Positions 33,301 to 36,300 of a stretch of DNA of 64,000 bases are shown here, one piece after another (the stretch's first letter is position 1; the number at the start of each line of letters is the position of its first letter). The notes under the pieces are model-generated. The model worked only from the letters and a program-made list of their open reading frames with translations. It made no database searches and was not told the DNA's origin. Source of the stretch: Bugula neritina (lineage: Eukaryota > Animalia > Bryozoa); assembly GCA_964035545.1 (NCBI GenBank), contig OZ037770.1, positions 2,232,001 through 2,296,000 of the forward strand, in the 5' to 3' direction. The translations under genes and the position numbers were made by a program.

Positions 33301-36300
33301 TACCGCAGCACACCACACTCCGCCACGCAAGAGACCCCAAACTTTCTGATGCTAGGCCGAGAGACGCGGGTTCCGGAACACCTGACTTACCATGTTCCTG
33401 CCCCCGAGTCACCGGTACACGAATATGTGGAGGGTCTGATAGACATCATGGGCAAAGCTCATGATGCACTGCGTACCCAGCAGTGGCAGACCCGCACCGA
33501 GGACTCAGAAGAGCCCCTGTTGTACCAGGTGGGAGACTGGGTCTGAATGGTAAGCTACCGTAGGCGACGGGGACAGTCGGCTAAGCTTCAGCCCAAGTTC
33601 GTCGGTCCCTACTGTGTAGTGGAGGTGCTGCCCAACCACACGTATCGTGTGGAGCGCTCTGGACAGGTCTCGGTTCAGAGTGAGCAGCGCCTGAAGCCTC
33701 ACCATGCCAGCCCGGACGCGGTGGGTCAGGCTCCACCCCTCCTGGAGCCCCACCGCCAGCCCAACCGTCGAGGACGGGCCACCCAGCCCCGAGAGGTAGA
33801 AATTGTGGTCCCAGAGAGACGGACCAGGAGCAGACCGCCTTGATGGAGCAGCTGGAGCGACAACAGAGAGAGGAGCGGGAGCAAGAACGACAGCAAGCCC
33901 TAGGACCACCACCCCTCCAGGGAGAGGACACCCCCACCCGTGTTACGGGTGAAGGCAGGGACCCCCTTCGCCGGTAGCTGAGGAGCCACCGGCACCAGCC
34001 GCGCCTATACAGCAGGAAAGGAGTCAGAGGGCCAGAAGGCCCCCTAGATATCTGGCAGACTATGCTGTAGGGCACCCAGAACTACCCCCCCCCCCGTGCA
34101 GGTAGTCCGTCCAGTACGGATAACTACCCAATCTTGGTTGGAAATTCCCTCCATTACCCCGGAGAATTCCACCAAGAAGAAGAAATTCCAGACCGAATTT
34201 CGGAGGGCACGCGTTTACGCGAGTTGTCTTTTCTAAAATTTTTGGAATTTCCCACGGGTCGCGTAGCTCGGACTAGCGCAGGTAATGATTCTAAAACACG
34301 AGTTTCGGCCATTTCAACTTTAACTACCACGCTGATAGGACGTACTTCTGAATCAAATTTAAAATTCAATTAGAAAATTAATGGTGACAACCTCGATACA
34401 ACCATGGGCAGATCATCACCGACTAAACAATCAGGTATTTCTTTACAGCTATATCCTCCCCATGGGGAGTCTAGCCAACCTAATAGTAATGTAGACTGGT
34501 CAGTGTCAGATTTATTAGAATCAAATCTGTTAGAACCGGAGGCAGAGATGGATCTCGGAGGTGACTCAGCCCTTGACTTTCTATTAGATCAAGGCGTGGG
34601 CTCGGTCACTCTTTGTGACTCATCTCCGCCTGCGGTCCATAATCTGGCTCCTCGTAAGCATGTGCCGAATTTCGGCGGTAGTGAGATCGGCTCCTCACAG
34701 CCTCTGCTATCTCTTTCAGCTGAACACATGGAGATTGAGGAGGCTAGTCAGCCCGACTCCCCTCTTCCACCGGCCCCTGTCCTGGCTCCCAGCAGCCAAC
34801 AGGGTGCCCCACCCTCCGCAGCGGTGTGTGCCACCAACACGAGTAGCCCTAACTCCAAACCGGTCGAGCTACAGCTCGCCGCCGGGGAGGAACAAGGCAT
34901 ACTCAGCGGTGACCACCCTGACGGCCTAACTGGAGAAGATGCCCCAATACTGGCACTGCCTCGAGCCCTGGTCGCCCGCCAGTATTGGGTTTCAGGAGCG
35001 ACCAGTCGCAAGATTGGTGAGGCGTGCGGTGAGTCGGGCAACCGCATCTGCCACCAGTGCAGGAGGAAGTTTTCCTACTCACGGCGGCTGCGGGTACATG
35101 CCCCCCAGCACTTCCTCAACGTATTTTGCTCGTGTGGGGAGTATAGCTACCAGCGTGATTATGTGCTGAGACATCAGCGCATATCACGCTGCTAAACGGG
35201 CTATACGTTCACTGTGGATGAAGCCACATTCCCCGAATTTCGGGACCTGGTGCTGCCACACGTGGCAGATCCTCGCAGACGGGCAGCTGTCGCCCAGGGA
35301 TTCCCCGCTTGTCGGCCGATCCAGGAGCACGAGGGGGAGCCCGTCGCCACCCCCAACCGGCGGCCACCCAACCACTTCGGGTCGTGCTGGCACGGGTCGG
35401 AGCAGACGCCAGGGACGATTCCTCGGACCTGGGCCCCCGACCCTTGGCGACGGGCAAGAAGCAGATGACACCAACCAACCCCGGTATATCCGACCGACGC
35501 AGGCGGCCAACGACGGTGCAGTTAGAGGACGAAGTCCGGCATCTGCGTAAATGACTCCGCAGGTGTGAGGAAGAGATGGAGGAGCTCCGACGACGCCTGA
35601 ACCGCTTGGAGCGGGGACACCCTAGTGACCATTGAGTTCACCCCCCCCTTTAGACAATGGTGGCGGGCATGTGTAGTCTGTGTAATATTATTGTCTTGTA
35701 TTGTACCACTCGTGTGAAAGAATTTGTTGTATATTATCCCTTTATAGTTTGAATTTTGTGTGACTAAAATGTGATTTATTGTTGTCTTGTCCGTGCACGC
35801 GGTGTGTAACCCTGTTGTGTTTGTTTTTTTTTTATTTCATTTTTTTATTGTCACTTTTTTTTACCTTACTATGTTCTTGTTTTTTTGTTGTTTTTGTTTG
35901 TTGTTCGTGCGCCTCTTATCGGAAAGCATGCTTTCCGATGGGGGGTGTGTGTGGTGGATTCGTGTGTCTCCGGGTTGCCGAGATCGGTGCTTCGGTCTTC
36001 CGAAATGCCGATATACCGAATATCGGCAGGTCGGACTACCGAAGTGCCAGTTTCGGCATTTCAGATCCCCGAAGTGCACACAGGAATGTCTTTGTCTTGT
36101 GTACATATATAAAGCCAGCGAGTTTCAGTGTAGATCAGACTACTACTGGAGCTCGCTAGTAGTAGGGCCATAAGCTGTATCTGATGCAAATAAAGTTATC
36201 CTTCATTCGTACTCAAATACTTGGCTTATTCTTTCTAGAGCATGTAGGCACTAGTTGCATTCAAAACCCACAGTTTACTACACTACTACTTAAGCATAAT

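Follow-up and report, generated by a model that had tools for sequence, protein, structure and literature searches.

In the 64-kb window analysed here, the whole stretch of Bugula neritina DNA under study, the Ty3/Gypsy element Gypsy 1 carries a decayed copy of a protein with two zinc fingers. This two-finger module belongs to a family without name and is under purifying selection. Comparison with related elements showed that it forms the end of the Pol polyprotein in some families and a separate gene in others. Our leading interpretation, which we put forward tentatively and give a little less than an even chance, is that the protein is likely released by the element's protease and probably acts in the nucleus to activate transcription from the element's own DNA.

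The Gypsy 1 element and its module

Gypsy 1 occupies positions 28366-36282, and all of its features given below lie on the forward strand. Its LTRs are identical at 323/333 positions, a 4-bp target duplication flanks it, and protease (PR), reverse transcriptase (RT), RNase H (RH) and integrase (IN) are all encoded. The LTRs, gag, the pol order PR-RT-RH-IN and the GPY/F module place the element in Ty3/Gypsy. The 5' LTR (28366..28739), with TTCGG/CCGAA subrepeats in U3, is followed by a primer-binding site (28741..28758), for which we take tRNA-Leu to be the primer; its 10-mer was also found near the 5' end in 8 of 14 long relatives. A gag frame with a CCHC knuckle (28769..29695) leads into pol (29659..34063), which encodes the four enzymes, is interrupted by frame changes and stops, and closes with an integrase tail motif (34019-34063). 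Behind a spacer (34071..34403) and the finger protein, the element ends in a purine tract and the 3' LTR (35938..36282, LTR proper 35950-36282). The TTCGG/CCGAA subrepeats are palindromic and lie at 28400-28535 and 35985-36078, where the 3' LTR is shorter by 41 nt; they are not common to the Gypsy 3 LTR, and no nameable LTR subrepeat joins Gypsy 1 and Gypsy 3. The RTs nearest to that of Gypsy 1 are mostly without name, and the neighbours that do carry a name, of the RT as of the module, all point to an animal host. Contigs from four runs span the whole element, which has no bearing on its expression.

The finger-protein frame begins at an ATG at 34404 and ends at 35635, in sense orientation between pol and the 3' LTR. 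This conserved internal ATG opens an acidic, Pro/Ser-rich low-complexity region (34404..34955) that we infer to be activation-like. The core domain of about 105-120 residues (34956..35354) comprises a Trp/Thr helix, two fingers and a VD-x4-PEF motif. The first finger is of the C2H2 type (C-x2-C-x12-H-x3-H, 35049-35111), and a 5-residue linker separates it from the second (C-x-C-x12-H-x5-C, 35127-35192). Downstream of a frame change, a short hydrophobic motif, [PL]xVxL-x-R (35357..35401), matches the published HP1-binding consensus, and the protein ends in a long helix of the coiled-coil type (35516..35635). An earlier note on this DNA had described an ORF at 34404-35635 with an acidic N-terminus, two fingers, VD-x4-PEF and a coil; we confirmed this, although the copy is broken: it has stops at 35193-35195 and 35552-35554, and between them the frame changes near 35350. 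The note had also seen no signal peptide or transmembrane helix, and our 19-residue hydropathy scan of the window protein agrees, detecting neither the signal peptide nor the transmembrane anchor of an Env. The maximum was 0.70 and -0.01 for the two Gypsy 1 pieces and 0.78 for the uninterrupted P0007, and values above 1.6 occurred in 6 of 147 homologues. The splice acceptor that the note had proposed at 34449 did not hold up: its phase is not kept in Gypsy 2 or in the relic copy described below, and we therefore rejected it as an acceptor.

Upstream of the ATG, the finger frame is open from 34071 with one stop (34371-34373) in 110 codons, and the other two frames contain several. The upstream frame matches proteins that are continuous with the integrase tail. 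One of them, P0012 from the window's clade, runs in a single frame from the integrase tail to the coil, the spacer being coding there, and aligns collinearly with positions 33962-34099, 34143-35369 and 35285-35626. Similarity within the spacer is low against P0012 (11/40) and marginal against Gypsy 2, where 8 of 500 shuffles score as high. Since P0012 is continuous and the window spacer is open with a single stop, the Gypsy 1 module was most likely an extension of Pol originally. The conserved internal ATG may additionally permit separate expression of the module.

The claim that the same protein is recognisable elsewhere in the window was borne out by tblastn and by a core-domain profile built from 98 domain copies, which matched exactly four places and nowhere else in the window. 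Besides Gypsy 1, these are a relic copy (27019..28075, forward strand, with the tblastn match at 27019-28069, E 1e-28), a decayed copy in Gypsy 2 (44589..45720, forward strand, E 2e-19) and a divergent copy on the reverse strand (49440..50210, E 4e-8) in Gypsy 3, an element spanning 55985-48840. The relic lacks the PEF segment, no pol was found adjoining it, and the insertion point of Gypsy 1 lies about 290 nt downstream. The HP1-type motif is present in the Gypsy 2 copy and was not found in that of Gypsy 3. The window also holds tandem arrays at 6829-7926, 21263-21811, 22584-22748, 37193-37495 and 61074-61300, with units of 21, 10, 70, 17 and 8-10 nt, and a 750-bp dispersed repeat with copies at 45779-46534 and 47937-48693, also downstream of the Gypsy 2 module. 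An 83-bp piece of this repeat (50283-50365) lies inside Gypsy 3, between the integrase tail and the fingers.

Protein family, predicted fold and selection

A word search returned 17 relatives, all without name and several uninterrupted from the fingers to the coil. With a profile search of 1.84 billion proteins we obtained 257 family proteins at E<=0.001 (150 among the matches listed). The finger spacing is present in 96 of 165 proteins, and about 0.9 of the 98 domain copies retain the non-ligand residues W, T, V and D, the last two as a Val-Asp pair; Cys and His were not counted as conserved because they had served as a filter. Family members differ in the fourth ligand of the second finger. 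Pfam returned weak C2H2 matches alone, in 12 of 90 members, and none of the module's nearest clusters in the protein atlas is named. When clusters were looked up for 30 proteins, those named by organism consisted only of uncharacterised bryozoan gene models (Watersipora subatra, Bugula neritina). In models P0021/P0166, P0108 (Watersipora), P0167, P0170 (Bugula) and P0045 the domain occurs once or twice, some models have isoforms, and P0021 additionally carries a coil and the hydrophobic motif. Domestication of the domain in these bryozoan gene models is possible.

Scans of metagenome and viral collections with the finger alignment returned no loci, and the core domain was found in 0 of 120 RT-bearing proteins. 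A search of longer proteins (1139-3250 residues), which is a weak test, gave no scoring match. In P0148 and P0164 a single ORF encodes an aspartic protease together with the finger domain but has no RT, and may represent a deleted non-autonomous element. The pol protein P0183 and the distant finger protein P0098 each come from a 6627-base JGI contig and possibly belong to one element.

AlphaFold2, supplied with 90 sequences, predicted that about 110 residues fold compactly and that a low-confidence linker joins them to a helix at the C-terminus, the pLDDT reaching 90-97 over residues 11-120 and the coil; a prediction from 10 sequences had a pLDDT of 41. No match reached E<=0.001 in the fold searches (Foldseek best E 0.98 in PDB and 0.38 in the viral set), and the wide search was filled by coil matches, so that the core domain lay outside its scope. 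The weak best PDB matches were DNA-binding C2H2 arrays, namely the host factors SALL4, HIC2 and WT1. These resemble the module in its canonical first finger, whereas the module has two fingers only, an H-x5-C linker unlike TGEKP, a C-x-C second finger with a variable fourth ligand, and extra flanking helices.

Estimates of dN/dS were about 0.15-0.3 in several close pairs, with some close-pair intervals including 1. For the split ORF, pN/pS was 0.16-0.24 with intervals below 1; two fused extensions gave 0.18 and 0.31, and two others gave 0.30 and 0.48 with intervals that include 1. The fingers of Gypsy 1 and Gypsy 2 yielded a pN/pS of 0.32 (dN 0.27, dS 2.2), the RT gave similar values (0.21-0.32), and the N-terminal region was less constrained (0.59-0.73). 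The view in the earlier note of a selected, element-encoded module other than Env is thus upheld by purifying selection, together with a fixed place behind the integrase and the finding that no Pfam family reaches its cut-off for the module. Neither a dN/dS near 1 nor an ordinary host zinc-finger gene was encountered; a Kruppel-type host gene was rejected since the module contains no array with TGEKP-type linkers and is linked to integrase.

Fused and split forms behind the integrase

An integrase scan of metagenome contigs provided 77 loci; it found none in viral contigs, and five weak prokaryotic matches in genome contigs were dropped. The core profile matched 16 of the 77 loci, all in sense orientation and 0.55-1.1 kb behind the integrase core. 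By pattern search, the double finger was found in 26 of the 42 loci whose 3' flank was 0.7 kb or longer, again always in sense and 0.5-1.2 kb behind the integrase core. The 16 pattern-negative loci include one core-profile match and two with fingers seen by eye, while the same search found no fingers in L030 and L032, although their 3' flank measures about 2 kb or more. In L030 (2092-3099) and L040 (6901-7515), the element end is followed by a gag frame, reflecting either tandem copies or circular assembly.

Ten of the 26 finger-bearing loci, from seven families, have no stop between integrase and fingers, and nine of these ten are single frames of 1370-2170 residues. Three full fused frames checked with Pfam encode PR-RT-RH-IN in frame with the fingers, and a chromodomain is absent from their Pfam matches; three families each have two contigs that show the fusion. 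In L012/16/21/51, L052 and L026, the pol stop lies directly behind the integrase tail and the fingers form a gene of their own, and the finger gene of L007 is likewise separate. A separate third ORF, as the earlier note had described it, is therefore not the rule: the frame is open upstream in Gypsy 1, and in these ten relatives the fingers are the end of the Pol frame. L022 (at 4215) and L027 (at 2797) share a common stop upstream of the fingers, and L029 is open there. Upstream of the split finger genes, paired CCAAT boxes occur in L041/45 (L045:4600-4755) and L052 (1690-1840) despite saturated dS, and a TATA box occurs in L012/16/21/51 (L016:3160-3246); taken over 32 elements, neither CCAAT nor TATA was generally enriched in front of the fingers.

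In subclade A, to which the window belongs, the order is acidic region, fingers, linker and coil; subclade B has two C-x2-C fingers and an acidic C-terminus. Within the residues measured, acidity N-terminal to the fingers is marked in just 2 of 9 subclade-A extensions; in subclade B, 7 of 10 products are acidic over their C-terminal 80 residues (net 0.19-0.31). A dUTPase-like insert separates RNase H from integrase in L015 and in all four B loci for which this junction was read. Pfam confirmed a dUTPase in L005 (1125-7628), and similar sequence occurs in L008, L015, L020 and L026. Alignment with hhalign shows the fingers of the two subclades to be homologous (95.6%, E 1e-8), and the finger types track two integrase groups (support 94 and 84) in a tree made by a quick method from 64 of 85 rows. 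Since the two finger types follow the two integrase groups, the tree suggests that the module was inherited together with the element. Fused forms are scattered over both groups, and split forms occur in each.

Behind the capsid region, subclade-B Gag contains a conserved 4-residue site that we infer to be a protease site. From five such Gag sites we derived a 4-residue cleavage profile, with its offset picked by eye. In seven ORFs, the site that lies three residues beyond the integrase tail ranked 1/2102, 1/1214, 7/2075, 4/496, 2/142, 19/661 and 67/2165, which is within the top 3.1% in all seven tested. With a by-eye profile, 5 of 9 subclade-A tails ranked among the top 5%, and no clear cleavage-like site follows the integrase tail in the clade of the window itself. 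Because a Gag-like site follows the integrase tail in one subclade, it is likely that the element protease frees the module from Pol. Whether by a cut or by a stop behind the tail, the two products would be identical, which would account for fused and split forms alternating; with such a cut, the module would be a protein on its own and not a domain of integrase.

Possible functions of the module

The anatomy of the module is of the transcription-factor type, and a nuclear regulator fits because fingers, an acidic stretch, a coil and an HP1-type motif come together. Among transactivation, anti-silencing and targeting we rank transactivation first, a choice that still falls somewhat short of an even bet. 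Specifically, the protease would cut just behind the integrase tail and release the finger protein, and the fingers would attach to DNA, for which the LTR or an internal promoter is the simplest target. The acidic stretch, placed before the fingers in subclade A and at the C-terminus in subclade B, would recruit coactivators, the coil would oligomerise the protein, and the HP1-type motif would engage the heterochromatin where the element resides. Module made with Pol could be packaged and reach each new insertion, and module made from the internal ATG could provide positive feedback. The precedent for this working model is foamy-virus Tas (Bel1), an acidic-class transactivator that binds the LTR and an internal promoter (PMC517496, excerpt). 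Shared features are a 3' accessory product, an acidic activation region and promoter-like boxes before some split genes. However, Tas belongs to Retroviridae, not Ty3/Gypsy, and is not described as part of Pol in that excerpt; the likeness is one of anatomy and proposed action.

Ligands of the HP1 chromoshadow domain have a degenerate PxVxL core with a basic residue at +4 in a disordered region, and the Drosophila rule is 3-6 basic residues within -4..+4 of the motif (PMC12526061, excerpt). The consensus is matched by Gypsy 2 by script and by Gypsy 1 by eye; the Gypsy 1 motif has two basic residues, below the Drosophila rule, which may differ outside Drosophila. Among homologues the first motif position alternates between Pro and Leu, and the motif sits in the low-confidence linker between the two folded parts. 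A strict pattern occurred in 14 of 87 C-terminal regions against 0.46 in shuffles (maximum 3), and the published consensus was matched by 13 of 38 close homologues against 2.7 and by 9 of 43 distant ones against 3.3, all of these counts coming from kin and not from independent sequences.

That the motif is commoner than in shuffles would also suit an integration tether, in which the module, on or bound to integrase, steers insertion while its fingers read DNA or nucleosomes and its PxVxL-type motif docks to HP1. Targeting domains of the Ty1 and Ty5 integrases steer insertion (PMC9673352, excerpt), and chromodomains do so in chromoviruses (bioRxiv 10.64898/2026.05.21.726589, excerpt). Like the module, these domains are chromatin-related and sit at the C-terminal end of the frame that encodes integrase, either within a disordered region or following one; unlike them, the module is a double zinc finger, is also found as a separate gene and has a cleavage-like site before it. 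A tether is equally compatible with the retention of the fusion, which is in frame with integrase in seven families over both subclades. It would also suit the crowding of four copies of the clade into 30 kb of the window, which is rich in satellites, with one copy nested behind another. Nevertheless, we regard it as unlikely: stable split genes are under selection, the cleavage-like site stands between integrase and module, 200-400 low-complexity residues and acidic stretches would be superfluous, and the motif evidence is weakened by the kinship of the sequences, by the two basic residues in the window and by the absence of a motif from Gypsy 3.

The transactivator reading can be extended to a widespread invertebrate Gypsy lineage whose particle-packaged, protease-released finger protein would bind and wake new copies in HP1 heterochromatin, whose module would have split from Pol at least twice with its own promoter, and whose doubled form would have given rise to bryozoan host genes; taken as a whole, this scenario is rather unlikely.

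An anti-silencing or self-restraint factor would be a free protein bound to element DNA, with the HP1-type motif serving as a decoy or recruiting HP1 to hold copies down. The place of the motif between folded parts and the existence of free-standing forms agree with this. We hold it decidedly unlikely, since many family members have no such motif whereas the fingers are universal, and it overlaps the transactivator model to the point of being inseparable from it by sequence.

RNA binding is possible for C2H2-type fingers, and the module might instead handle or export RNA, its fingers binding genomic RNA and its coil oligomerising. CERV of C. elegans Cer1 is such a Gypsy-encoded nuclear accessory protein, with a Cys-rich site, M and G domains and a zipper-type coiled coil, and is required for export of genomic RNA (PMC10309623, excerpt). 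However, the C4 loop, G-like domain and Gag-shared zipper that accompany the RNA-export role of CERV in that excerpt are not seen here, in a comparison by description alone. The proposed splice acceptor is not conserved and the acidic tails would go unexplained, which makes this role very unlikely.

Finally, an Env-like fusogen or a captured, unselected host zinc-finger gene is extremely unlikely: the module shares the sense strand and the place between pol and the 3' LTR with errantivirus Env (ORF3 of insect gypsy), its first finger is an ordinary C2H2 finger with a weak Pfam match, and its domain occurs in bryozoan gene models, but it has zinc fingers, no hydrophobic leader and, in the window protein, no membrane segment (0.70), so that it is not Env, it is often in frame with Pol, and a dN/dS below 1 and a fixed position behind integrase in diverged elements argue against capture.

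The excerpts of the clade surveys PMC8556966 and PMC6238403 contain no match for 'zinc' or 'ORF', and those of PMC2774666 and PMC11952523 do not describe the module. Our literature search, with Repbase, Dfam, GyDB and supplements (which may annotate the module) outside its scope, found no description of the module, of its fusion or fission, or of its release. Extra genes and domains on Gypsy elements are a known kind of thing, animal Ty3/Gypsy elements are mostly regarded as gag-pol(-env), and a transcription-factor-like product is a hallmark of complex retroviruses. The lineage described here carries such a product, with the fused-Pol and free-gene states side by side. It therefore offers a natural series for asking how the accessory genes of retroelements originate, and a testable candidate for the means by which an element may stay active, or aim its insertions, in heterochromatin.
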